NCBI GenBank assembly: GCA_030619905.1
Contig: JAUXAO010000002.1
Coordinates: 1,193 to 65,192, forward strand
Length of the DNA: 64,000 nt
Source: a bacterium
Lineage (GTDB): Bacteria > Patescibacteriota > Minisyncoccia > Minisyncoccales > CG1-02-41-26
Reading direction: 5' to 3'
The position numbers were made by a program, and so were the translations under genes. This document shows, one piece after another, positions 256-31,218 of the stretch. The notes beneath the pieces are model-generated. The model saw nothing but the letters and a program-made list of their open reading frames with translations. It was not told the DNA's origin and ran no database searches. Each line of letters starts with the position of its first letter. Positions within the stretch are counted from its first letter, which is position 1.

Positions 256-2570
256 AGATTGGAATTCCAAGGGGTTTGTTATTTAATGATTTCTCACCCT
301 TGTTTATTCCTTTTTTTAATTATTTAGGCATAAAAACAATTGTTTCAGATGAAACTAATAGGAAGATAATAAATCGTGGTTTAGAAATGGTACCAGCAGA
401 ATATTGTTTTCCAACAAAAGTTGCCTATGGTCATGTTGACAATCTGCTAAAAAAACTAAAAAAAGATGATTTTATTTTTATTCCCTATATTGCAAATACA
501 GGAAAACCAACTGGCAGCTATAACTATTGTGTCACATGTCCGTGGACACAGTCTGCACCAGATCTCATGAAATCTGCATTAAAGCTTGCCAAAGAAGGCT
601 TTAATCCAGAAAAGCTTGTTTCTCCTTCACTATCTTTTGATTGGGGATTAAATCATATTGAGGATCAGATGAAGAAAGCTGTAGCAAAGATGGGTTGTAG
701 CACAAAAAATGTTAGGGCTGCACTTCAAAAGGGATTAATAAATAAAGAGAAGTTTGATAAGAAAATTGAGGAAAAAACAAAAGAAGCCTTTGATTCTATT
801 AAAAAATATAAAAAAAACGAACCTGCTTTTTTGGTTATGGCAAGACCATACACAGCTTATGATGCAAATGTTAATAATGATATTGTAAATAAAATTTTAG
901 ATGCTGGTTATCTGGCAATACCTCTTGAACTTGCTCCAATAGGATCAATAGATATTTATAAACAAATGCCAAAGATGTACTGGATACAGGGTCAAAAGAA
1001 GCTGGCCGCAATAGAATTATTAAATAAAAATAGGAATTTATTTGGAATTGATATAACCTATTTTGCCTGTGGTCCTGATACTCAGATAAACCAGCAAATG
1101 GTATGCAGAGCACAAAAGCCATTTTTAACGATTGAAATGGATGAGCATACTGGGGATGCTGGAATTGATACTAGATTACAGGCATTCTTTAATACTGTTA
1201 AATCTTATCTTGAGATAGAAGCAAAGCAAACCAGTAAGGTTTTTAATGTAAAACTAAAGGGTCTTGATAAGATTAAAGGCAAAAAAATTCTTGTTTTTCC
1301 TCCAATGTCAAAACATAATTATGCAATATCCTCTGCTTTAAATGCCTATGGAATTCAATCAAAGGTTTTAGAGGTAAGCCCTGATGAAACCCTGGAAAAA
1401 GCAAGAAGCTGTACATGTGGCTTAGTATGCACACCCTATCTGCATACCACAGATGCTATGCTTCATTTTATGCAAAAACCAGGGTTTGATCCAGAGAAGT
1501 TTGCCTTTTTTCAGGCAACAACTGAATGTGGTCCATGTAGATTAGGCCAGTATGCAAGCCTAGAATCACTTTTATTCCAGAAAAAGGGAATAGATGTTGA
1601 TATAATAACAGGGGGTGAACTAGGAAGTGAATTCAATCTTGGCATACCCTTACTAATCAAGGCCTGGTCTGGTATGACTGCAGTTGACCAGCTTGAAAAA
1701 ATGAGAATGCACACAAGACCATATGAGGTTAATAAAGGAATCTCAGATCAGATTTATGAGAAATATCTGAAAAAGCTTCTTGATTATTTAGTAGATCCAA
1801 AAACTAATCTTGCAAAAATAAAAACCTATTTAACTATTGGAAAAGCGTTTTTTTCAAATTTATTTAATGGAAAATTATCTCCTATTGAGGAAATCTTAAG
1901 AAAAGCTCAAGAGGAATTTTCTCAAGTCAAAAGAACTAATGAAAAAAAACCAAAGATAGGCATAGTTGGCGAATTCTATGTAAGACTTCATGAGCCAGCA
2001 AACCAAAACATTATAAGAAAACTTGAGGAAAAGGGAGCAGAAATTTGGTTAGCTCCAGCAACAGAATATCTGGTTTATTCTTATTATCTTGGTTCTGTTA
2101 TTGCAAGAGAAAAGTTCAGCTTAAACAGAAAAAAAGAGGATTTAAAGGAATGGCTCTTGAAATCAATATTATATAGAGTTATGATTGGTTATGAGCATAG
2201 GTTATTTAAGGCAACCTTGCCATATATGCAGGGCTTTGATGATATACCTGCAAAAGAAATAGTTTCAAATGGTGAGAAATATATTAGACACTATATTGGC
2301 GGGGAGGCCATAGTGAGCATGGGAAAGGCAGTAGATTATGTAAAAAGAGATTTGGATGGTATTATCAGTGTTATTCCTTTTAACTGCATGCCAGGACTGA
2401 CTGTAGCTGGTTTTATCCTTAAATTTAGAAAAGATAATAATAATATTCCATTTGTATCTATAGAATATGATGGCTTTCAGGATAGTACAAGAGAAGTGAA
2501 AATAGACACCTTTGTTGCACAAGTAAAAGAAAGGCATGAGAACAAAAAATCTACACCAAAATTTTTTTAG
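246..2570 (+). CDS. acyl-CoA dehydratase activase-related protein (DUF2229-type, 'CoA-substrate-specific enzyme activase' C-terminal module)
   Basis: 774-aa ORF. The N-terminus MKIGIPRGLLFNDF...EYCFPTKVAYGHV and later repeats (IGIVGEFYVRLHE, IPFNCMPG) look like this family, by recollection rather than by search. Confidence 0.55.
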   Translation: MQMKIGIPRGLLFNDFSPLFIPFFNYLGIKTIVSDETNRKIINRGLEMVPAEYCFPTKVAYGHVDNLLKKLKKDDFIFIPYIANTGKPTGSYNYCVTCPWTQSAPDLMKSALKLAKEGFNPEKLVSPSLSFDWGLNHIEDQMKKAVAKMGCSTKNVRAALQKGLINKEKFDKKIEEKTKEAFDSIKKYKKNEPAFLVMARPYTAYDANVNNDIVNKILDAGYLAIPLELAPIGSIDIYKQMPKMYWIQGQKKLAAIELLNKNRNLFGIDITYFACGPDTQINQQMVCRAQKPFLTIEMDEHTGDAGIDTRLQAFFNTVKSYLEIEAKQTSKVFNVKLKGLDKIKGKKILVFPPMSKHNYAISSALNAYGIQSKVLEVSPDETLEKARSCTCGLVCTPYLHTTDAMLHFMQKPGFDPEKFAFFQATTECGPCRLGQYASLESLLFQKKGIDVDIITGGELGSEFNLGIPLLIKAWSGMTAVDQLEKMRMHTRPYEVNKGISDQIYEKYLKKLLDYLVDPKTNLAKIKTYLTIGKAFFSNLFNGKLSPIEEILRKAQEEFSQVKRTNEKKPKIGIVGEFYVRLHEPANQNIIRKLEEKGAEIWLAPATEYLVYSYYLGSVIAREKFSLNRKKEDLKEWLLKSILYRVMIGYEHRLFKATLPYMQGFDDIPAKEIVSNGEKYIRHYIGGEAIVSMGKAVDYVKRDLDGIISVIPFNCMPGLTVAGFILKFRKDNNNIPFVSIEYDGFQDSTREVKIDTFVAQVKERHENKKSTPKFF

Positions 2571-2649
2571 AATTTTTTTTATTTATTGTTTTATTCTGCT
2601 ATAATTGATAATCAAATTATTTGACTAATATATCTTAATTTTTGCTAAA

Positions 2650-3927
2650 ATGGTTTCTAAATCTAAAAAAAAGCGAAAAAAACCAAGAAAGCCAAGAAAA
2701 TCAAGAAAGCCAAAAACTCTAAGTTTTTCATTTAAACCGCGAAGAATTAGGATAAGGGTGATAGGTATTGGTGGTGGAGGCAGTTCTATTGTTTCAGAAA
2801 TTGCCAGAAGCGTGAAGAAAACGAATTTTCTAATAGTTGACTCTGACCATAGAGTAGTTAAGAAGGGAGGGAGAAATGTAAAGGTCTTTCAATTCGGACA
2901 AGATTTGACAGGAGGACTAGGTACAGGAATGAATGTTGATTTGGGAGAAAAAATAGCTCTAAAAGAAAAAGAAAAAATCGCCCGAATGTTCAAAGACCAA
3001 GATCTTGTTATTTTAATAGCTTCATTAGGAGGGGGGTTTGCTTCAGGGGCAGCCCCTGTTTTTGCTGAAATAGCAAAAGATTTTAAAAATATTAGTTTGG
3101 GGATATTCACTCTGCCTTTTCGCTTTGAAGGAGAGAAGAAGTTAAGGATTGCTGAAGAAGCAGTAGGCAAGATAAAAGAGAATTTATCCGGTCAGTTTGT
3201 TGTTGCTAACGAAAGAATATTTCAGATTATTGACAAAAAAACTCCTTTAAAAAAAGCTCTTTCAACCTTGAATAGATCTTTAATTTCAATGCTTGAAGAT
3301 TTAATAGAAATGATTTCCAAGCCGGGCTTGATTAACATTGACTTTGCTGATTTAAAAACAATCTTAAAAGGAAGGGGAAGATTAATTTATTTTGGCAGTG
3401 CTTTTTCCCAGGGTCCCAACCGGGCTGAAGAAGTTGTAAAGAAAGTTTTTCAGAATCCTTTAAGCATAGGGGATTTAGGAAAATCCAGAAAAATCCTATT
3501 TAATATTAAAGGAGGAAAAGATTTAACTTTGAGAGAAGTGGAGAAGATAAGCTCGGGAATTTGTAGTTTTAATCGAACAGCAAAAATAATTTTTGGAATT
3601 TCCCAAGATCCAAAATGTAATGGCAAAATCAAGTTAACTTTGCTTGAAGTTGGTGAGGAAAAACATGAAAAGAAAAAGACAAAAAGCAAGTTAAAAGAAA
3701 AAGAACTATCAGGCCAGGAAAAAACCCAAGAGAAAAAGAAACCATCTTCAGTTAAAATAGACAAGAAGGAGAAACAAATTAAAGTGGTTTTTAGAAAAGA
3801 AAAGAAGAAGAAAATTCGGAGGAGTGGTTTAGAAGTAAGGAAAGCAAAAAAAGAAGAAGAAGAACAGGAATGGACGAAAGAACCGGAATGGGAGATTCCT
3901 GCATTTTTAAGGAGAAAATCGAAATAA
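2650..3927 (+). CDS. ftsZ: cell division protein FtsZ (atypical: basic N-terminal extension, altered tubulin signature)
   Basis: IRVIGIGGGGSS, LGGGFASGAAPVFAEIAK, LINIDFADLKTIL, a long K/E-rich linker and a C-terminal EIPAFLRRK peptide. Confidence 0.85.
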   Translation: MVSKSKKKRKKPRKPRKSRKPKTLSFSFKPRRIRIRVIGIGGGGSSIVSEIARSVKKTNFLIVDSDHRVVKKGGRNVKVFQFGQDLTGGLGTGMNVDLGEKIALKEKEKIARMFKDQDLVILIASLGGGFASGAAPVFAEIAKDFKNISLGIFTLPFRFEGEKKLRIAEEAVGKIKENLSGQFVVANERIFQIIDKKTPLKKALSTLNRSLISMLEDLIEMISKPGLINIDFADLKTILKGRGRLIYFGSAFSQGPNRAEEVVKKVFQNPLSIGDLGKSRKILFNIKGGKDLTLREVEKISSGICSFNRTAKIIFGISQDPKCNGKIKLTLLEVGEEKHEKKKTKSKLKEKELSGQEKTQEKKKPSSVKIDKKEKQIKVVFRKEKKKKIRRSGLEVRKAKKEEEEQEWTKEPEWEIPAFLRRKSK

Positions 3928-22486: not shown

Positions 22487-23318
22487 AATTAAACGCGCCC
22501 GGCAGATACATAAACTAAAGAGTTAAAATCTCTTTCTCTACGATTCGTCAGTAGAGCATAGTTGAAAGATAGTTATCCATCGCGAGATGGATAGCGGAGG
22601 ATCTGGAAACAAATAGTAGCCCGAGTTATTAAGAGTTAGTCGACCCATGAACAGGTGGTGAGCATGGGGAAGATTATTTTATAAGCTCAGCTTGGGATGT
22701 TAGGAATAGTTTATGTATTGACCCGGGGAGATCTGATGTTGTATAATGGAACTAACGCAGCGTCAGAAGTCAGCTGGATCATAGTATCTCACTTCTAGTG
22801 GGAAAAGGATCCTCTCTAATTCATGCTTAATTCTAATTACATTATCGGTTTAGTAGATGGTGAAGGTAGCTTTACAGTTTATATTCGTAATTCCAAAGAG
22901 AGTAAATCTGTAAAAAGAAGAGTTAAAGCAGAACCTAGATTTTACGTAAAATTGATAGAGAAAGATAAAAAAATTCTTTATGAATTGAAAAAGTTCTTTG
23001 GTTGTGGAAATGTCTACTTCCAAAGAGACAAACGTAAAAATCACCAAAATTGCTACCGTTATGAAGTAGCCAATCGTAAAGACATAGAGAATGTTATTAT
23101 ACCTTTTTTTAAAGAGCATCAACTTAAGATTTACTCAAAGAAAAAAGATTTCAGAATTTTCTGCAAGATAATAAATCTAATGAAAAAGGGGAAACATTTA
23201 GAAGATAAAGGTTTACAAGAATTGTATAGAATTAAGCAAGAAATGCATTAGAGCTCGCCGTATGCGGGAAATCCGCACGTATGGTGGGAACGTCAACTCT
23301 AAGTTCCTAGAGAACATT
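22487..23318 (+). mobile_element. intervening sequence/intron in 16S between E. coli-equivalent positions 1399 and 1400, carrying a homing endonuclease ORF
   Basis: Exon ...CCTTGTACTCAC ends at 22486 and CGCCCGTCACA resumes at 23319. Together they reconstitute the universal GYACACACCGCCCGT segment. Confidence 0.75.
22823..23251 (+). CDS. LAGLIDADG homing endonuclease, single-motif (homodimer-type)
   Basis: 142 aa; YIIGLVDGEGSF motif near the N-terminus; located inside the 16S insertion. Confidence 0.85.
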   Translation: MLNSNYIIGLVDGEGSFTVYIRNSKESKSVKRRVKAEPRFYVKLIEKDKKILYELKKFFGCGNVYFQRDKRKNHQNCYRYEVANRKDIENVIIPFFKEHQLKIYSKKKDFRIFCKIINLMKKGKHLEDKGLQELYRIKQEMH

Positions 23319-23541
23319 CGCCCGTCACATTAGGGAAGCCGGTAATAGCCGAAACTCCAGCTTGTCTGGGTCTAAGCTAAGATCGGTAACCAGAATGAAG
23401 TCGTAACAAGGCACGGCTAGGGGAACCTGGTCGTGGATCATTTCTTTTTTTTGAATTGGTTGACAAGATTTGAAAATTGAGAATTCTATTTTCAAATCTT
23501 AGATGTTAGTCAAGTCATCTTATAAATTGACTATTCACTCT

Positions 23542-23741: not shown

Positions 23742-23815
23742 GGGCGATTAGCTCAGCTGGTTAGAGCGTTCCTCTGATAAGGGAGAGGTCCGAGGTTCGA
23801 ATCCTCGATCGCCCA
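23742..23815 (+). tRNA. tRNA-Ile (anticodon GAU)
   Basis: GGGCGAT...ATCGCCC acceptor, anticodon loop CTGATAA, T-arm CGAGGTTCGAATCCTCG. Confidence 0.9.
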
Positions 23816-23823
23816 ATAAAAAC

Positions 23824-24096
23824 ATGCCAAATGAAGAAAACAAGGGAAATGAAGTAATAGATTACAGCAAGTTTTTTGAAAGAGAAAAGGGGAAGAAAGT
23901 AGAAATTCCTCAGAAAAAAGAGAAGTTTTCTTTTAGTTTTTTAAAAAATCTTTGGTCTGAAATGGACAAAAAAACAAAAGTAGAATTGATAGTTCTCTTA
24001 GTAGTAATTATAATGATAATTGGTATTTTAGTTTTTTATTTTTTGCAGATGAAAGCTTTTGAAGTTCTCCCAGTTCCACTTCCAGCTGAGTATTAA
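23824..24096 (+). CDS. small single-pass membrane protein (module 1), paralog of 24684..24974
   Basis: 90 aa; charged N-terminus DYSKFFEREKGKKVEIPQKKEKFSFSFLKNLWSEMDKKTKVELI, then a TM helix; no family recognised. Confidence 0.5.
   Translation: MPNEENKGNEVIDYSKFFEREKGKKVEIPQKKEKFSFSFLKNLWSEMDKKTKVELIVLLVVIIMIIGILVFYFLQMKAFEVLPVPLPAEY
23863..23991 (+). repeat. 129-bp perfect direct repeat, copy 1
   Basis: Identical base for base to 24717-24845 by manual comparison. Flanks on both sides diverge immediately. Confidence 0.95.
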
Positions 24097-24118
24097 ATTA
24101 GTTAAGAATTTCAGAAAT

Positions 24119-24652
24119 ATGGAGAATAATGAAAAAAGTAAAAAGGGTTTTACTTTAATTGAATTACTAGTGGTAATTGCTGTTATTAGTCTCTTAGCTT
24201 CAGTGGTTATGGTAGCTTTTCCAGGAGCTACAAAAAAAGCCAGAGATGCAGAAAGATTACAAGATACACATCAAATCCTTACAGCTCTTCTTATATATAA
24301 AACAAATGAGGGTCGATATCCTAGTATATCTGGAGATGCTTGTTGTGATGGTTGGGACCAAGGACCTTGTGGAACAGATCCTTTTATTGGAGCCTTGATA
24401 GATAGCGGTACGGCAACTATAGTCCCAACAGATCCAAGTGGTGGTTCGGGAACAGGGTGTTACGGATATAATTATTATCGTTATGGAGCTGGAAATTATG
24501 GTTGCGATTCGTCAAAAGGTGCGTTTTTCGTCTTAGGTGTTCGAGATATGGAAGCGAGTGGAAGACCTCATCCCGATAGTCTTGGTTGGAGCTGTTCAGG
24601 TAGAAACTGGCAGAATGAATTTGACTGGGTTACTGGAGGATTTGAAAAATAA
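24119..24652 (+). CDS. type IV pilin-like / type II secretion pseudopilin-like protein (module 1)
   Basis: Class III signal peptide MENNEKSKKG|FTLIELLVVIAVISLLASVVMVAFP. The Cys/Gly/Tyr-rich globular part contains VPTDPSGG. Confidence 0.8.
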   Translation: MENNEKSKKGFTLIELLVVIAVISLLASVVMVAFPGATKKARDAERLQDTHQILTALLIYKTNEGRYPSISGDACCDGWDQGPCGTDPFIGALIDSGTATIVPTDPSGGSGTGCYGYNYYRYGAGNYGCDSSKGAFFVLGVRDMEASGRPHPDSLGWSCSGRNWQNEFDWVTGGFEK

Positions 24653-24683
24653 CTTATCTAAAATATTATAAATTAAAAAAGCT

Positions 24684-24974
24684 ATGGATTTAAATAAAAA
24701 AAATGATGCAGTAGACTACAGCAAGTTTTTTGAAAGAGAAAAGGGGAAGAAAGTAGAAATTCCTCAGAAAAAAGAGAAGTTTTCTTTTAGTTTTTTAAAA
24801 AATCTTTGGTCTGAAATGGACAAAAAAACAAAAGTAGAATTGATAATTTTTTTGATAGTAGTTTTAATAACTCTTGGTATTTTAACTTTTCATTTTTTAA
24901 GAGAAATTAAAACACCAGAATTATTTATATATCCTCCCTCTCAGAGAGTGGATTTTTTACCATATGAAAAATAA
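24684..24974 (+). CDS. small single-pass membrane protein (module 2)
   Basis: 96 aa; shares the 43-residue DYSKFF...KVELI block with module 1, then a divergent TM helix and tail. Confidence 0.5.
   Translation: MDLNKKNDAVDYSKFFEREKGKKVEIPQKKEKFSFSFLKNLWSEMDKKTKVELIIFLIVVLITLGILTFHFLREIKTPELFIYPPSQRVDFLPYEK
24717..24845 (+). repeat. 129-bp perfect direct repeat, copy 2
   Basis: Identical to 23863-23991; the offset is 854 bp. Confidence 0.95.
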
Positions 24975-25467
24975 TATTTATTTTTTTAAAAAAGGGTTTA
25001 CTTTAGTTGAATTATTAGTAGTAATTTCCGTTATTGGTCTTTTGACTTCAGTCGTTCTAGTTTCTTTTCCGACATCAACGAAAAAAACAAGGGATGCAAT
25101 AAAGATGCGGGAATTAAAGCAAATTCAGACAGCTTTACGTTTATATTACGATATTTACCACCAAATGCCTGTTAATAGAACTCCGGGATTTGGTTATTGT
25201 GATGACCAGCCAAATTTTTTACAGGAAATAGTAGATGCAAAATTATGGCCTGACAATCCAAAGAGTCCAAGCGAGGGACATTATTGCTATTATGATTATG
25301 ATGTTGATAATTCAACAGGAGCTTTATTAGTAGTGACATTGGAAAGCTATTCTGGAACAGATGGGATTCTTGGGTCGTGTCGTCCTTGGGCTGCTGGTGA
25401 GAGTTGGTGCGATAAAAGTGATAATAATTATCATTGCCTTTGTACTCCTTATTCCCCTTATTGGTAG
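24964..25467 (+). CDS. type IV pilin-like protein (module 2)
   Basis: MKNNIYFFKKG|FTLVELLVVISVIGLLTSVVLVSFP. The C-terminal domain is divergent and Cys-containing. Overlaps the preceding small ORF by 11 nt. Confidence 0.8.
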   Translation: MKNNIYFFKKGFTLVELLVVISVIGLLTSVVLVSFPTSTKKTRDAIKMRELKQIQTALRLYYDIYHQMPVNRTPGFGYCDDQPNFLQEIVDAKLWPDNPKSPSEGHYCYYDYDVDNSTGALLVVTLESYSGTDGILGSCRPWAAGESWCDKSDNNYHCLCTPYSPYW

Positions 25468-25767: not shown

Positions 25768-25841
25768 GGGCCTGTAGTTCAGTTGGTTAGAATACCTCAT
25801 TTGCAATGAGGAGATCGCCGGTTCGAATCCGGCCAGGTCCA
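25768..25841 (+). tRNA. tRNA-Ala (anticodon UGC)
   Basis: Acceptor GGGCCTG/CAGGTCC gives the G3:U70 identity pair; anticodon loop TTTGCAA; T-arm GCCGGTTCGAATCCGGC. Confidence 0.9.
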
Positions 25842-25902: not shown

Positions 25903-26580
25903 ATGGTTGAAAATTGGTCAGGTATTACATTATTAGCTTTACAAGATTTCTGGCAGGGATTTTTGAGTTTTATGCCACGTCTTGTTGGAGCAATAATTAT
26001 AATTCTTATTGGTTGGTTTATTGCTGATTGGATTGGAAGATTGGTAACCGAGGTTTTAAGGAAATTAAAGTTTGACCGGATTTTTGAAAGAACTCAATGG
26101 CAAGATGCTCTGGAAAAAGCAGAATTTAAAGTTTCTGTTTCTCATTTTTTTGGAGAGATTGTTCAATGGATTTTAGTGATTGTCTTTTTACTAGCAGCTG
26201 TAGAAGTTTTAGGGAGCCGTCAATTCGCTATTTTCCTAAACAAGATAGTTAATTGGCTTCCAAATTTAATAGTAGCAGTTGCCATTTTTGTGGTGGCAGT
26301 AATTATTGCTGACTTTGCTAAGAAAATAATCCAGGCAGTTGTAGAGAAAGCAAAAGTAGCGCATTCAGAATTAATATCATCAGTTGTTCAATGGTCAATT
26401 TGGGTTTTTGCCCTTTTTGCTATTTTAATTCAATTGGGGATTGCCAGAGAATTGATTCAGATCTTATTTACTGGACTTATTGGTTTGGTTGTAATTAGTT
26501 GTGGAATTGCTTTTGGATTAGGAGGAAAAGATTTAGCCAGAGATATCCTGAATGGTTTAAGAAACAACTTAAAGAAATAA
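25903..26580 (+). CDS. multi-pass membrane protein with repeated 'conserved TM helix' units (MscS-N-terminal-like)
   Basis: 225 aa. Repeated pattern of a hydrophobic helix plus a charged linker (e.g. LVGAIIIILIGWFIADWIGRLV, IVAVAIFVVAVIIADFAKKI). Family assignment is by recollection. Confidence 0.5.
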   Translation: MVENWSGITLLALQDFWQGFLSFMPRLVGAIIIILIGWFIADWIGRLVTEVLRKLKFDRIFERTQWQDALEKAEFKVSVSHFFGEIVQWILVIVFLLAAVEVLGSRQFAIFLNKIVNWLPNLIVAVAIFVVAVIIADFAKKIIQAVVEKAKVAHSELISSVVQWSIWVFALFAILIQLGIARELIQILFTGLIGLVVISCGIAFGLGGKDLARDILNGLRNNLKK

Positions 26581-26830: not shown

Positions 26831-27394
26831 AGGAATTATCTAAAAATAATTTTAAGGGCAAATGGTGGATGCCTTGGGAGTGGGAGGCGATGAAGGACGT
26901 GGCGTGGCTGCGATAAGCTTCGGGGAGGTGCTTAGCAACCTTTGATCCGGAGATTTCCGAATGGGGAAACCCGATTGCGTAAAACGCAATCGACTCATCA
27001 AAAAGGTGAGTCGCGAACCCGGGGAAGTGAAACATCTCAGTACCCGGAGGAAAAGAAAACAATGCCAGTGTTTTACACTGGTGCATTCCCTTAGTAGTGG
27101 CGAGCGAAAAGGGAAGAGCCCAAACCGAATACATAATTTATTATGTGTTCGGGGTTGTAAGAAAATAACGTCGGGAGCTAAGCATATAATTTTTATATGC
27201 TTAGTGCCTGAGGGAGAGCATTTAGACAAAAGTTGGTTAGGAGAAATTTCCTGGAAAGGAATACCATAGAGGGTGATAGTCCCGTATCTGAAAATCCTTT
27301 TGTGCTCCTTGTTATTTCTCTTAAGTACCTCAGGAAATGAAAGCCCTGAGGGAAGCATCCGTGACTATGCGGAAAGGCTAAATACTACCCACTC

Positions 27395-27435
<41 letters not shown>

Positions 27436-29365
27436 GCCCGGTGAGGGCGATGAAATAGAACCTGAAACCATTTGCTCACAAGGAGTCAGAGCCGAGCATA
27501 TAACTTGTTATATGTTTGGTGATGGCGTGCCTATTGAAGAATGAGCCAACGAGTTCAAACATATAGCTGTTTAAGTCCTTATGGGACGAAAGCAGAGCGA
27601 AAGCAAGTGTTAAAAGCGCGTTTAAAGCTGTCTGTTTGAGACCCGAAGCCAAGCGAGCTTGCCATGACCAGGGTGAGTTCCGCCGAAAGGCGGAAGGAGG
27701 CCCGAACCCGTGAGCCGTACAATACTCTGGGATGAGTTGTGGTAAGGAGTGAAAAGCTAAACGAGCTTGGTAATAGCTGGTTCTCCCCGAAATAGCTTTT
27801 GGGCTAGCCTCAGGTAAATAAACTATAGGGGTAGAGCACTGGATGGTTTATTATGGGATTTTCCTAGGTAAATCAACCAAACTCCGAATACTATAGTGTG
27901 TTATCCTGGGAGTCAGACTGTGGGGGCTAAGCTCCATGGTCAAAAGGGAAACAGCCCAGATCATAATCTAAGGTCCCTAAATTCGAGCTAAGTGTACTAA
28001 GGAAGTAGAGTCTCTTCGATAGCTAGGAGGTTAGCTTAGAAGCAGCTATCCTTTAAAAAGTGCGTAATAGCTTACTAGCTAAGAGTCTTTGCGCCGAAAA
28101 TTCAGGGGGCTCAAGCTCGATACCGAAGATATGGAGCCTTGTGCTTTGCACAGGGTTGATAGGGGAGCGTCCTCTTTGCATTGAAGTTCCGCTGTAAGGT
28201 TGGGATGGAGCGAAGAGGAGTGAGAATGTTGGCATGAGTAACCGCAATCTCGGTGAAAGTCCGAGACACCGAAAGCCTAAGGTTTCCTTGGCAATGACAA
28301 TCAGCCAAGGGTTAGGCGGTCCTAAGGTGAACCCGAAAGGGGTAGCCGATGGACAGCCGGTTAATATTCCGGCCCCTCCATTAAAGCCAAAGAGAAGACG
28401 AAGAGTCTCAACTGAGAGAGTTATTGGATTCTCTTCTTTGTGCTTCGGCATGAGGGAAGTTTTAGTTTCGGCTGAAACAACTCAGTGTAAAACTTTTCCT
28501 AGAAAATTCTTAGAGGAATACTTTAATGGAGTCCGTACCATAAACCGACACAGGTAGGCTAGTGTAAGTATACTAAGGTGAACGAGTGAAAGCTCCTGAA
28601 GGAACTCGGCAAAAAAGTGGTCGTAAGTTTGCAATAAGACCTGCCACCGTAAGGTGGCCACAGAAACATTTCCCTGGCGACTGTTTATCAAAAACACAGG
28701 TCCCTGCTTAACTTGAAAAAGGATGTATAGGGGCTGAGACCTGACCAGTGCCGGAGTGTTAATGTTGCCGGTCCAAGTATGTAACTTGTTATATATTCGG
28801 GCTGAGCGATTGAAGCCTCCGGTGAACGTCCGCGGTAACTCTGACCGTGTTAAAGTAGCATAATCCCTTGCCAGGTAAGTTCTGGCCCGCATGAATGGTT
28901 CCACGACTGGGGAACTGTCTCCAGGAGTTGCTCGGTGAAAATGCAATCCTCGTGAAGATGCGAGGTACCTGCGGCTAGACGGAAAGACCCCGGGAGCTTT
29001 ACTGTTCCCAGATATTGGTCTCTGATTTTGGATGCGTAGAGTAGGTGGTAGACTTTGAATCTTGACTTTCGGGTCAGGAGGAGTCGCCAATGAAACACCA
29101 CCCTTTCAGAATCATAGTTCTAATCCGTTATAAAGCGGAAACAGTGTCTGGTAGACAGTTTAAGTGGGGCGCTTGCCTCCTAAAAGGTAACGGAGGCGTT
29201 TAAAGGTCGGCTAGCTCCGGATGGAAATCGGAGTGATAGGACAAAGCCAAAAGCCGGCTTTACTGCAAGGCGGCTATGCCGCGCAGTTGCGAAAGCAGAA
29301 CTTAGTGAACCGACCCCGGTTAATAGGACCGGGGAAGATTATCAGATAAAAGTTACCCCGGGGAT

Positions 29366-29752
29366 AGACTCTGCTCCGCCAATTGGCGGAAAAAAGAGTT
29401 TGTTGTCCAACCCATTTTAAGTATATAGCTTATTATATGCTTGAACCGAGAACACGAAATTTTGTGTTTCGGCCGTAAGGATGGGAATGTACGGCTTATA
29501 ACGGTAAAACTAAAACCGGTCTTTCTCAGATAATTTTGAGTTTTAGAGTTTTAGCAATACCGTGGGAAGTCGGCGCATTTACTTCGTAAATACTAAATCA
29601 AGAGAGTGGAGTAAGCGCTTGACCCCGTAACGACTGAGACTTTATGTCGAGATAGTGGGTACCTGGTAACCAGGAATTAAACCATTATCATACGCCGTCC
29701 CCACTATATTTATATTAGTGGGTGAAGATATAGTCTAATCTTAAAAAGATTG
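29366..29752 (+). mobile_element. group I intron A (387 nt, no ORF) at the E. coli-equivalent L2449 site
   Basis: Exon GGGGAT|...G|AACAGGCTGG, so the 5' exon ends in U and the intron ends in G. Contains ACTGAGACTTT (R-like) and GAAGATATAGTC (S element). Confidence 0.72.
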
Positions 29753-29803
29753 AACAGGCTGGTAGGGCCCGAGAGTTCATATCTACGGCCCTGTTCGGCA
29801 CCT

Positions 29804-30677
29804 CAAAAAAAACGACAAATCGGGGTGCTATGACAGTAATGTCATACCAAAAATTTGGCTAATAACGGTGAAACCCAAGTCTTTTTATGTTAAAATAAAA
29901 AGATGGGCAATACCGTGGGAAGTCTAACTCAAGTAGAAAAATCAATTATTATTGGATCACTTTTGGGTGATGGGTATTTAAGAATTGTTCCAGGAAGGAA
30001 AAATGCATTTCTCGAAGTTAATCATAGTATATCTCAAAAAGAATACGTAGATTGGAAATTTCGGAAATTGAGAAATATAATAAAAAATCCACCAAAAGAA
30101 AGAAAAGGAAAAGGGAAAAGAATAGCTTACAGATTTTTTACACAACAACATCCTGAATTAACAGAATTATATTTAAGATTTTACAGTAATAAAGTTAAAA
30201 TTATTCCTGATCTGAAATTGAATCCATTAATTATAGCAGTATGGTTTATGGATGATGGAAGTAAAAGTTATAAAACTTACTACTTAAATACTCAAAGTTT
30301 TGATTATCTATCGCAGAAGAGATTTGTGCAAATTCTTAAAAAACAATACGATATTAATAGTTCGTTGAATCGAGATAAACAATACTATCGTATTAGAATA
30401 AAACAAGATAGCGCAAAGAGATTCAAAAAATTGATTTATAACCATATAATTTCTTCAATGAAATATAAACTTAATGAGTTATGACCCCGTAGAGACTTTG
30501 TCCCTAGAGGACAGGATAGAAGGTGCTTTGTAATAAAGATTTAAACTTCTATAATACGCCAACTCCACCAAATTTTAGCAGGTTAAGAAGATTACTTCTT
30601 CTTTACCTTCGCTTTTGCTTTACAAAAGTTCGGTGGATGAAGATATAGTCCATACTATTAGAAATAATAGATAAATG
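29804..30677 (+). mobile_element. group I intron B (874 nt, endonuclease-bearing) at the E. coli-equivalent L2500 site
   Basis: Exon GGCACCT|...G|CGATGTCGGCTCATC. Contains GTAGAGACTTT and GAAGATATAGTCC core elements. Confidence 0.8.
29903..30484 (+). CDS. LAGLIDADG homing endonuclease, double-motif (monomer-type)
   Basis: 193 aa; IIIGSLLGDGYL and LIIAVWFMDDGS motifs; located within intron B. Confidence 0.85.
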   Translation: MGNTVGSLTQVEKSIIIGSLLGDGYLRIVPGRKNAFLEVNHSISQKEYVDWKFRKLRNIIKNPPKERKGKGKRIAYRFFTQQHPELTELYLRFYSNKVKIIPDLKLNPLIIAVWFMDDGSKSYKTYYLNTQSFDYLSQKRFVQILKKQYDINSSLNRDKQYYRIRIKQDSAKRFKKLIYNHIISSMKYKLNEL

Positions 30678-30745
30678 CGATGTCGGCTCATCCTATCCTG
30701 GAGGTGGAGAAGCTTCCAAGGGTTTGGCTGTTCGCCAATTAAAAG

Positions 30746-30782
<37 letters not shown>

Positions 30783-31068
30783 TGGTCCCTATCTACCGTA
30801 GGCGTTGAGTTTTGAGGGGGGTTCGAGATAGTACGAGAGGACCTCTCGGAGCTAACCTCTGGTGTACCAGTTGTCGTGCCAACGGCATAGCTGGGTAGCT
30901 AAGTTAGTAAGGGATAAGCACTGAAGGCATATAAGTGCGAAGCCCGACCCAAGATTAGAACTCTTAGATTCCTCAAAGATGATGAGGTTGATAGGCTCCA
31001 GGTGTAAGTGGGGCAACCCATTCAGCCGAGGAGTACTAATAATCAATCATATTTTTAGATAAGGCCTA

Positions 31069-31106: not shown

Positions 31107-31218
31107 ATCTTGGTGATAATACCGAGGTTGTTCCACCCGATCCCATTCCGAACTCGGAAGTGAAATACCTCAGGGCTGATGATAGTACATTTGTGCGAAA
31201 GTAAGTCGTCGCCAAGAT
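31107..31218 (+). rRNA. rrf: 5S ribosomal RNA
   Basis: ATCTTGGTG...CCACCCGATCCCATTCCGAACTCGGAAGTGAAA...CGCCAAGAT; the termini are complementary. Confidence 0.9.

Follow-up and report, generated by a model that had tools for sequence, protein, structure and literature searches.

The 23S rRNA gene in the 64,000-nucleotide stretch of DNA analyzed here (hereafter the window) is interrupted at two sites in domain V, L2449 and L2500. The two inserts, introns A and B, are very probably site-specific IA-type group I introns that were acquired independently, and the 18-nucleotide sequence that they share (the 18-mer, GCAATACCGTGGGAAGTC) would be a piece of their common core.

Exon and Intron Structure of the 23S rRNA Gene

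Alignment to Escherichia coli 23S rRNA (L001, positions 501–3404) restored a continuous domain V when positions 29366–29752 and 29804–30677 were excised, the exon ends falling between U2449 and A2450 and between U2500 and C2501 in E. coli numbering. On the forward (+) strand, to which all coordinates below refer, exon 1 (26840–29365) begins with the Rfam LSU match and ends at U2449. It is followed by intron A (29366–29752), an ORF-less, IA-type L2449 insert of 387 nt with G29752 as its terminal guanosine (ωG); by a 51-nt mini-exon (29753–29803; E. coli 2450–2500) that contains the peptidyl-transferase A2451; by intron B (29804–30677), an ORF-bearing, IA-type L2500 insert of 874 nt with ωG at G30677; and by exon 3 (30678–31041), which runs from C2501 to about the 3′ end of the molecule according to both Rfam and the E. 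coli alignment. A preliminary description of this DNA had proposed two group I introns at L2449 and L2500 with a 51-nt exon between them, an arrangement borne out by the alignment and by the group I anatomy and covariation described below. It had also noted that at both junctions the 5′ exon ends in U and the intron in G, as can be read directly from the sequence. A repeated A or a repeated C leaves 1 nt of ambiguity at each junction, which was settled as in that description because of the U(−1)/ωG rule. The comparison with intron-less relatives that it had suggested also proved informative: a close relative, L082 (93–98% identical), has an empty L2449 site reading GGGGAT/AACAGG, which confirms the limits of intron A. 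The intron-less L2500 site reads GTTCGGCACCTCGATGTCGGCTCA.

The best named matches of the 23S gene were Saccharibacteria, Parcubacteria, and Patescibacteria MAGs (80–87%, a measure of rRNA similarity only), and, judged from this similarity and from the intron load, the host is probably a CPR/Patescibacteria-like bacterium. The rRNA operon of the window carries introns in both 16S and 23S and has protein genes inside it; near position 1400 the 16S gene contains an insert that is group-II-like and bears a LAGLIDADG_1 ORF.

Ribozyme Anatomy and Covariation

Both inserts are recognizable from their sequences as group I introns of the IA type, with a G·U pair in P1, a P10, ωG, and helices P3 through P9 including P7.1 and P7.2. 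The guide of intron A, read from the sequence, lies at 29401–29408. Its GUCC (29405–29408) pairs with GGAU of the 5′ exon (29362–29365) to form P1, the G29405·U29365 wobble being followed by A-U, G-C, and G-C pairs, and UGUU (29401–29404), directly 5′ of the wobble G, forms a 4-bp P10 with AACA of the 3′ exon (29753–29756). Across 17 homologues GTC is invariant and the flanking T and C almost invariant. The guide of intron B (29819–29829), read in the same way, contains ATCGGGGTGC, which is invariant in 10 homologues. Here P1 is formed by GGGUGCU (29823–29829) with GGCACCU of the 5′ exon (29797–29803), comprising the G29823·U29803 wobble and 5–6 more pairs, and P10, again of 4 bp and directly 5′ of the wobble G, is formed by AUCG (29819–29822) with CGAU of the 3′ exon (30678–30681).

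The 3′ cores, comprising P6′, J6/7, P7, P7.1, P7.2, P3′, P8, and J8/7, occupy 29621–29735 in intron A and 30483–30650 in intron B, as located by covariation and by the profile R1 introduced below. In intron A, P7 pairs GACU (29632–29635) with AGUC (29732–29735), P3′ is 29694–29698, P8 pairs 29700–29706 with 29716–29722, and P7.2 pairs GAUAGUGG (29651–29658) with CCAUUAUC (29682–29689), the equivalent strands of homologues, compared by eye in the alignment, being GAUAGCGG/CCGCUAUA, GAUAGAAGG/CUUCUAUC, and similar. Intron B has its P7 at 30494–30497 with 30647–30650, P7.1 at 30499–30503 with 30509–30513, P7.2 at 30516–30522 with 30546–30552 (double changes at 4 of the 7 pairs), P3′ at 30558–30562, and P8, which carries a long extension, at 30564–30569 with 30632–30637. 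Subgroup IA is marked by two additional helices, P7.1 and P7.2, that separate P7 from P3′. Both introns possess them, and we assign both to IA, with an IA1-like predicted structure. The sequence GAAGATATAGTC occurs at 29724–29735 in A and at 30639–30650 in B. The preliminary description had named GAGACUUU as a core element of both introns; this stands for B, in which 30492–30499 contains P7, but not for A, in which 29637–29644 belongs to the variable P7.1 and the true 5′ strand of P7 is (C)GACU (29631–29635), invariant across all homologues.

The structural case rests on counts of paired positions in the alignments. In the L2449 family including A, 88.3% of cells were paired, compared with 35–46% when the partners were slid, and changes on both sides were seen in 26 of 40 pairs; none of 500 shuffles reached the observed value. 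The L2500 family including B gave 88.8% against 35–43%, with double changes in 31 of 64 pairs. P7 is invariant in both families and hence uninformative for covariation. A profile of the 3′ domain built solely from 35 foreign L2449 introns (R1) matched intron A at 77.5 bits (E = 5.5e-16) and intron B at 58.4 bits (E = 9.3e-12), with 12 of its 110 positions fixed by the pattern that gathered the homologues; over the 64 kb it returned nothing significant besides these two. Because the RNAalifold structure gave only 3 pairs, we treat R1 as essentially a sequence profile, and the structural argument does not draw on it. The Rfam model RF00028, suggested earlier as a check, did match both introns at a relaxed E-value (A, 22.6 bits, E = 0.0036; B, 26.6 bits, E = 2.3e-4, and 23.2 bits), but all of these scores lie below the gathering score of 50 bits, at which neither intron was found; that score is the curated cut-off of one general model and not a defining property of group I. 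For comparison, the acceptance limit in a published survey of CPR bacteria was a cmscan E ≤ 1e-4 (PMC11270868).

Endonuclease ORF and Predicted Splicing

An ORF scan, Pfam, and alignment to I-SceI upheld the assignment of a two-motif LAGLIDADG enzyme to intron B and none to intron A. No ORF of at least 50 aa was found on either strand of A. The ORF of intron B (29903–30484) encodes a putative I-SceI-family endonuclease of 193 aa that matched Pfam LAGLIDADG_2 (PF03161) at 139.4 bits (cut-off 25; 1.4e-40) and aligned end to end with I-SceI, the matches spanning residues 16–190. Both acidic motifs are intact (LLGDGY and WFMDDG), and the stretches around them, IIGSLLGDGYL and IAVWFMDDGSK, line up with the motifs in PDB 6x1j. 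The body of the ORF lies in loop L6; its ATG is within the 3′ strand of P5a/P5, codons 2–8 overlap J5/4, P4′, and P6, and the stop codon TGA belongs to P6a′ (UGACCCC). The L6 of intron A (29572–29620) is a 49-nt hairpin closed by GGCGC/GCGC, at the place where relatives carry an endonuclease ORF of ∼600 nt.

We infer splicing of A and B by analogy with characterized group I introns, in which case each would be removed by two transesterifications. The guide would pair with the 5′ exon, giving the G·U at the cleavage site, and then with the 3′ exon via P10; the terminal G would sit in the G-binding site of P7, and the ligated exons would restore domain V. The endonuclease borne in L6 of intron B would be expected to cut intron-less L2500 alleles, leading to homing by double-strand-break repair.

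Group-I-derived inserts might instead have ceased to splice, being retained in the mature rRNA or removed endonucleolytically to leave a fragmented 23S. Such behavior has precedents, as group I introns that stay unspliced and intervening sequences processed by RNase III are both known from bacterial 23S rRNA, according to works cited in the CPR survey (refs 28 and 32 of PMC11270868). We nevertheless consider it improbable here: both inserts retain all splicing elements (guide with G·U, P10, ωG, invariant P7, J8/7, and compensatory changes), a single rRNA operon was seen in the window, and, reasoning from ribosome structure, an insertion of 387–874 nt or breaks around a 51-nt piece near A2451 are hard to square with a working peptidyl-transferase center.

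The Shared 18-mer and the Ancestry of Intron A

The window contains exactly two copies of the 18-mer, at 29554–29571 in intron A and 29907–29924 in intron B, and a search allowing up to 3 mismatches returned the same two only, compared with 0.02 expected by chance. The exact repeat on which the preliminary description drew is real. It was equated there with codons 2–7 of the intron B ORF, which is nearly right; the match starts with bases 2–3 of codon 2 and ends with base 1 of codon 8. From the pair list, covariation, and family-wide conservation, each part of the copy in A has a place in the ribozyme: G29554 is the 3′ side of the P5 closing pair, CAAU is J5/4, ACCGU is P4′, GGG is P6, AA is a bulge, and GUC is P6a. 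The copy in B has the same structural roles. The paired bases of the 18-mer covary with their partners in the L2449 and L2500 families. With no more than 1–3 substitutions the 18-mer was present in 38 of 40 L2449 introns of other genomes, ORF-less and ORF-bearing alike (exactly in L020), and it was identical or nearly so in almost all of the L2449 and L2500 introns examined, whether or not they carry an ORF. The copy in intron A of the sister genome L083 begins ACAACACC and is accompanied by a compensating change in the 5′ strand of P5, so the exact identity of A and B in the window is genome-specific and incidental. We interpret the 18-mer as conserved catalytic core of both intron families. 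Its overlap with coding sequence would reflect an upstream extension of the reading frame of B, which would have brought the start codon and first seven codons inside the P5/J5/4/P4′/P6 core.

The preliminary description had drawn a different history from the same repeat, namely that a B-like intron spread within the gene from L2500 to L2449 and lost its endonuclease there, giving A, with the 18-mer as what is left of the 5′ end of the ORF. The exactness of the repeat speaks for this, given that orthologous introns elsewhere deviate at 1–3 positions, but the supposed relic is covarying ribozyme core, found in L2449 introns with and without ORFs in dozens of unrelated genomes. The blocks D5, D1, D6, and D3 are likewise common to A and B and collinear, yet in the catalytic core A and B share 67% identity, which does not exceed the 68–71% between A and foreign L2449 introns. 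In neighbor-joining trees A fell among the L2449 introns and B among those at L2500; the clade of B was split from A in 98 of 100 bootstraps and the two were paired in 1 of 100, which, with 159–238 columns, is sufficient to reject the pairing but not to settle deep branching. A weak match (16/19) between L6 of A (29579–29597) and the ORF of B (30277–30295) is not significant; the figure for the sister copy L083A is 13/19, and blastn-short at E ≤ 1 did not return the match. Nor did L6 of A contain a collinear or significant ORF remnant, whether sought by tblastn with 27 intron ORFs or by blastn-short against three sets of L6 sequences, those from ORF-bearing L2449 introns, from intron B, and from ORF-bearing A-lineage introns.

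The ORFs of the A lineage itself weigh against such a history as well. In the ORF-bearing A-lineage introns (L089–L091) the gene is of the L2449 type, with 75% identity to the L058 ORF and 35% to that of B, and its ATG lies ∼25 nt downstream of P6a, i.e., after the 18-mer. Among 40 L2449 and 7 other L2500 introns the ORF, where present, always lies between GGGAAGUC and GACCCCGUA. Descent of A from a B-like intron within this gene is largely refuted, and we give it very little chance. Intron A would rather be the ORF-less form of a separate L2449 lineage, the ORF-bearing members of which would encode their own, distantly related endonuclease in L6. That A and B are related, as first described, is supported by their common IA type and by core strings that are alike and in one order; the common origin does not, however, lie within this gene.

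It is plausible that the L2449 and L2500 intron-plus-ORF families share a deep origin. More tentatively, the L2500 intron and endonuclease family may have arisen when an L2449-type element transposed ectopically to a site 51 nt downstream, with guide and protein retargeted and the ORF extended upstream, an origin that we regard as possible though somewhat less than an even prospect. If true, ribozyme folding and endonuclease translation would be mutually exclusive, and the two families would supply a natural pair of compact (190–200 aa) I-SceI relatives whose targets are separated by 51 bp, suited to studies of specificity retargeting. The 18-mer carries a general lesson: endonuclease ORFs can reach into the ribozyme core, which is conserved for RNA reasons, and an ORF-less intron that matches the start of another intron's ORF need not contain a relic.

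Distribution of Introns A and B Among Relatives

Among close relatives the two introns are present or absent in every combination, with A and B together, A only, and B only represented. The pair occurs in the window and in L083, L089, L015, L031, L041, L079, and L087; A-lineage introns occur without B in L088, L090, and L091, and B without A in L082, L002–L011, and L084. Among close relatives, moreover, A is found with or without an ORF, and the ORF of B is either intact or internally deleted. Of the gain, spread, and ORF-loss cycle that the preliminary description saw in this one gene, the gain and loss of introns and endonuclease genes are reflected at the locus, but an origin within the gene is not. 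In the pattern search of genome contigs, ∼17 of 67 matches lacked surrounding 23S sequence (Faecalibacterium, Pseudomonas, Bathyarchaeota, and others), ∼8 such matches being expected by chance for the search pattern (an estimate); several of those from Faecalibacterium are probably one shared sequence.

Homing is known to co-convert markers that flank the break, and with the two sites only 51 bp apart and A+B pairs recurring, A might be thought to spread by hitch-hiking, repair of the break made by the B endonuclease carrying along the flanking exon and A; this is highly unlikely given that A and B each occur without the other, that the A lineage has its own endonuclease, and that 12 of the 15 ORF-less L2449 introns of other genomes have no L2500 insert (of the others, L059 and L065 carry a short insert at that site and L033 has its interruption near 2474).

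Comparison With Known rRNA Introns

Insertions were reported in 82% of CPR 23S genes, mostly at fixed hot spots, of which sites 23IS6–14 are group I introns clustered about the peptidyl-transferase center (Tsurumaki et al., J Bacteriol 2024; PMC11270868). In that survey one site can hold both ORF-bearing and shorter ORF-less forms that are highly similar outside the ORF, and the LAGLIDADG_2 proteins, of ∼210 aa, group by insertion site, with occasional ectopic transposition suggested (PMC11270868). Introns A and B fit these published surveys of rRNA introns in CPR bacteria, where such introns are already well documented, as does the group-II-like insert in the 16S gene of the window; the fit is to the reported pattern, and L2449 and L2500 may be among the sites 23IS9–11. 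The survey does not describe the overlap of the L2500 ORF start with P5/P4/P6 or the structure of both families (PMC11270868). Current understanding is unchanged by A and B. They add another documented instance of a probable CPR bacterium with rRNA genes dense in introns, and a clean local example of introns and endonuclease genes being gained and lost independently; endonuclease engineers might find a use for the compact I-SceI relatives at L2449 and L2500.

One of the 23S introns of Coxiella burnetii carries a LAGLIDADG ORF. In that gene, as summarized in the CPR survey, Cbu.L1917 and Cbu.L1951 flank a 34-bp exon (Raghavan et al., 2007, in PMC11270868). On that account the likeness is that a single bacterial 23S gene holds a pair of group I introns with a mini-exon between them; the Coxiella introns are in domain IV around a 34-nt exon, whereas those of the window are in the domain V peptidyl-transferase center around a 51-nt exon, with a canonical ωG in both.

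A closer parallel in position is the chloroplast of Floydiella terrestris, with Ft.rrl.5 at site 2449 (IA1, 375 bp) and Ft.rrl.6 at site 2500 (IB, 381 bp) (PMC2997540, Table 4). The same two sites in one LSU gene produce the same 51-nt exon, and the IA1 class of the L2449 intron is consistent with P7.1 and P7.2 in A. Compared by published annotation, the Floydiella L2500 intron differs in being IB, whereas B has IA-type P7.1/P7.2 and is L2449-like, and both Floydiella introns are ORF-less.

The yeast mitochondrial ω intron (Sc.L2449) occupies the same insertion site as intron A, the exon in the window reading GGGGAT/AACAGG and the I-SceI site being TAGGGAT/AACAGGGTAAT. I-SceI belongs to the same family as the ORF of B, to which its chains matched with E values of 2e-9 to 6e-9; the ORFs of L2449 introns are in turn homologues of that of B. 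I-SceI has 235 aa, compared with 193 aa for the putative endonuclease of intron B. In contrast to yeast, the host is bacterial and its L2449 intron (A) is ORF-less, the I-SceI relative being encoded by the intron at L2500.

Insertion Sites and Intron Boundaries

When the segments at 29366–29752 and 29804–30677 were cut out and the remainder was aligned to the E. coli 23S rRNA gene, the exon ends fell between U2449 and A2450 and between U2500 and C2501, as the preliminary description had placed them, with surrounding domain V sequence almost the same as in E. coli. The observation of two inserts in the 23S gene, an ORF-less intron A (387 nt, + strand) at L2449 and an ORF-bearing intron B (874 nt, + strand) at L2500 separated by a 51-nt mini-exon (29753–29803), is confirmed with three small corrections. 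A repeated A or C permits a one-base shift at both junctions, and the group I rule (U 5′ of the intron, G as its final base) picks out the coordinates of the preliminary description. The empty L2449 site of a related genome, L082 (GCA_054773815.1), fixes the limits of intron A independently: its 23S flanks are 93–98% identical to the window, the first site is intact (GGGGAT/AACAGG) and intron B is retained. L2449 is also the position occupied in yeast by the ω intron, which has I-SceI.

Group I Structure

Both inserts are group I introns. The guide of intron A, UGUU-GUCC (29401–29408), pairs with the 5′ exon GGAU (G29405·U29365) and the 3′ exon AACA, that of intron B, AUCG-GGGUGCU (29819–29829), pairs with GGCACCU (G29823·U29803) and CGAU, and each intron ends in G. 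P7.1/P7.2 lie between P7 and P3′ in both, a mark of subgroup IA. The classical core reported earlier is present in each, but the P7 strand of intron A is GACU at 29632–29635 and not GAGACUUU at 29637–29644. The proposed search with the general Rfam model (RF00028) likewise matched both introns, but at 22.6–26.6 bits, below the gathering score of 50.

Genomes scanned for GAAGATATAGTC with AACAGGCTG 8–38 nt beyond it yielded 67 loci, about 50 of which are 23S genes with an L2449 intron, mostly in Patescibacteria MAGs but also in gammaproteobacterial MAGs, Pyrinomonas methylaliphatogenes K22 and a Dehalococcoidia MAG; L2500 introns were taken from contigs that encode relatives of the intron B ORF. 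For intron A plus 16 ORF-less L2449 introns, the hand-drawn P1 extension, P3, P4, P5, P6, P7 and P8 contained 88.3% standard pairs (35–46% with partners slid), with both-sided changes in 26 of 40 pairs, values attained by none of 500 shuffles. P2 through P9 of intron B plus nine L2500 introns gave 88.8% (35–43% slid) and both-sided changes in 31 of 64 pairs. When a profile was made from the 3′ domains of 35 foreign L2449 introns and no others, just two places in the 64-kb window matched significantly: intron A at 77.5 bits (E = 5.5e-16) and intron B at 58.4 bits (E = 9.3e-12). We infer that both introns are spliced. The cultured acidobacterium Pyrinomonas (L026, NZ_CBXV010000008.1) has a group I intron of the same family, 827 nt long and with an ORF, at 23S site L2449, and is a possible experimentally tractable host for splicing and homing tests.

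P2 of intron A (29409–29488) is longer by about 55 nt than in other L2449 lineages, an expansion common to L083, a sister genome, and to four metagenomic relatives (L088–L091). The extra sequence folds as two hairpins, AAGUAUAUAGC...AUAUGCUU and CCGAGAACAC...GUGUUUCGG, and the P1 loop of the same introns also holds a hairpin; compensatory changes among these relatives show that the hairpins are maintained.

ORFs and Their Position in L6

As claimed, intron B (ORF at 29903–30484) encodes a LAGLIDADG enzyme (LAGLIDADG_2, Pfam 1.4e-40), which aligns over its full length with I-SceI and a homologue, PDB 6x1j, has both acidic motifs intact and counts more than 2,000 relatives among public data. Intron A, also as described, has no ORF of ≥50 aa on either strand. 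The intron B ORF starts inside the ribozyme: its AUG straddles the P5a′/P5′ boundary, codons 1–7, M(G/D)NTVGS, are ribozyme core, and the UGA stop lies within UGACCCC.

Among 47 other introns, the ORF, wherever present, lies between GGGAAGUC and GACCCCGUA (loop L6), which measures 555–632 nt with an ORF and 11–94 nt without. The exceptions are L042 (L6 of 21 nt, 3′ part of 391 nt) and L043, an L2449 intron of 630 nt whose 342-nt L6 is intermediate between ORF-less and ORF-bearing (about 600 nt) forms and may hold a decaying ORF. In the L082 copy of intron B (L082:143-952) an internal 18-codon deletion shortens the ORF in frame to 175 aa, which may be an early stage of decay, while the product could still be functional. 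L043 and L082 look like ORF decay under way.

The Shared 18-mer

The window contains the 18-mer GCAATACCGTGGGAAGTC twice, at 29554–29571 and 29907–29924, and has no third copy even when up to three mismatches are allowed (chance expectation 0.02). The preliminary description read the intron A copy as a relic of codons 2–7 of the intron B ORF; the copy is exact, but one base out of register with those codons, and it is conserved ribozyme core rather than a relic. In intron A, G29554 pairs with C29510 to close P5, CAAU is J5/4, ACCGU (29559–29563) is P4′, GGG is P6, AA a bulge and GUC P6a; the roles in intron B are the same. The TAACGGT(A/G)AAAC block 5′ of it is J3/4, P4 and J4/5, and the shared TGACCCCGTA 3′ of it is P6a′/P6′/J6/7. 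The paired bases of the 18-mer covary with their partners. P5 is closed by C-G in 14 sequences of the L2449 alignment, by U-A in 2 and by G-U in 1, and two P4 pairs have switched, G-C to A-U and U-A to G-C; among the L2500 introns P5 closes with U-A (6 sequences) or C-G (4). With 0–3 substitutions, the 18-mer is found in all but two of 40 L2449 introns from other genomes, ORF-bearing or ORF-less; in L020, a gammaproteobacterial MAG whose intron lacks an ORF, the match is perfect. The L083 copy of intron A has ACAACACCGTGGGAAGTC at this place, compensated by a change in P5, so that the full agreement between A and B in the window is incidental.

Origin of Intron A

Derivation of intron A from a B-like intron, as proposed earlier, is not supported, and A does not descend from the co-resident B. 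In a core comparison omitting P1, P2 and P9, so that site-specific guides could not bias the result, intron A showed 91% identity with its L083 orthologue, 68–71% with foreign L2449 introns and 67% with intron B; intron B was 94–95% identical to its L082/L083 orthologues and 73–78% to other L2500 introns. Of 100 bootstraps, 98 set the intron B clade apart from A and one grouped A with B. Scanning metagenomes with a 23-mer peculiar to the P1/P2 junction of intron A added four members to the A lineage. One, L088, has 460 nt and no ORF, and its L2500 site is empty. The others, L089 (981 nt, intron B downstream) and, both without intron B, L090 (about 982 nt) and L091 (975 nt), each carry an L6 ORF of about 197 aa. 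Its ATG lies ~25 nt past P6a, 3′ of the 18-mer. Since this ORF shares 75% identity with its L058 counterpart at L2449 and only 35% with the intron B ORF, intron A represents, in ORF-less form, an L2449 lineage with an endonuclease gene of its own. Intron A may have lost this gene, or an A-like intron may have been invaded by it; no collinear trace of the A-lineage ORF was found in the 49-nt L6 of intron A or the 114-nt L6 of L083 and L088. L088 and L089 come from one metagenome, and their A-type introns are identical over the first (5′) 120 nt and differ in P5 and ORF content, which suggests recombination between intron variants.

At the family level, an old ectopic move between L2449 and L2500 is plausible: the ORFs are homologous (23–41% identity), lie in L6 in both families with a stop codon overlapping UGACCCC, the cores have long common strings in conserved order, and the L2500 clade falls among L2449 lineages in an unbootstrapped tree. 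That nesting hints at the direction 2449 to 2500, in trees that are weakly resolved.

The rRNA Operon

The window holds a single rRNA operon (+ strand), with the 16S gene from 21118 to about 23445, tRNA-Ile at 23742, tRNA-Ala at 25768, the 23S gene from 26840 and the 5S gene at 31109–31217; the Rfam 23S match ends early, at 29423, where the introns lie. Its rRNA and tRNA genes are interspersed with protein-coding genes, and mreC comes after the 5S gene. The tRNA spacer (23824–25467) contains two tandem gene pairs, each a small ORF (23824–24096 and 24684–24974; common N-terminus DYSKFFEREKGKKVEIPQKKEKFSFSFLKNLWSEMDKKTKVELI) followed by a prepilin-type (GFTLIELLVV) pilin-like gene (24059–24652 and 24964–25467). 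A mechanosensitive-channel-like gene (25903–26580) lies between tRNA-Ala and the 23S gene.

The 16S gene carries an insert of ~815 nt at about E. coli 1396–1400, between CCTTGTACTCACA and CGCCCGTCAC (22493–23310), with a single-motif LAGLIDADG_1 ORF (22823–23251, Pfam 2e-18); group II intron models match it below threshold, RF01998 at 22734–22810 (31.4 bits) and RF00029 domain V at 23256–23286 (24.4 bits). The insert fits the CPR class "position 1400 group II intron + LAGLIDADG_1." The 16S 3′ end (23437–23452) reads GGATCATTTCTTTTTT (E. coli, GGATCACCTCCTTA) and appears to be missing the anti-Shine-Dalgarno CCUCC, consistent with no obvious Shine-Dalgarno sequence 5′ of the intron B ORF's ATG.

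Comparison With Known Systems

The intron pair is real, yet an ordinary member of a described class, and the most distinctive earlier claim, an ORF relic recording spread within one gene, was conserved ribozyme core misread. The 2449 + 2500 pair with a 51-nt exon recurs in at least nine of the genomes compared (L015, L031, L041, L059, L065, L079, L083, L087 and L089). Relatives both close and distant (L083:1-130, L087, L002–L010, L088) have further 23S introns, absent from the window, at about L1951, L2262 (with a 218-aa LAGLIDADG_2 ORF), L2511/2512 and L2593/4. In a survey of CPR rRNA genes, 82% of 23S genes had insertions, these sat at fixed hot spots and the group I introns gathered around the peptidyl-transferase centre; LAGLIDADG_2 proteins of about 210 aa grouped by site, some ORFs were degenerate, ORF-bearing and ORF-less forms, highly similar outside the ORF, were dispersed over the phylogeny, and ectopic transposition was hinted at (Tsurumaki et al., PMC11270868). 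Like the window, the Coxiella 23S gene, as cited in that survey, has a mini-exon flanked by two group I introns (PMC11270868), and the Floydiella chloroplast rrl has the same two sites, 2449 and 2500, filled in one gene (PMC2997540, Table 4).
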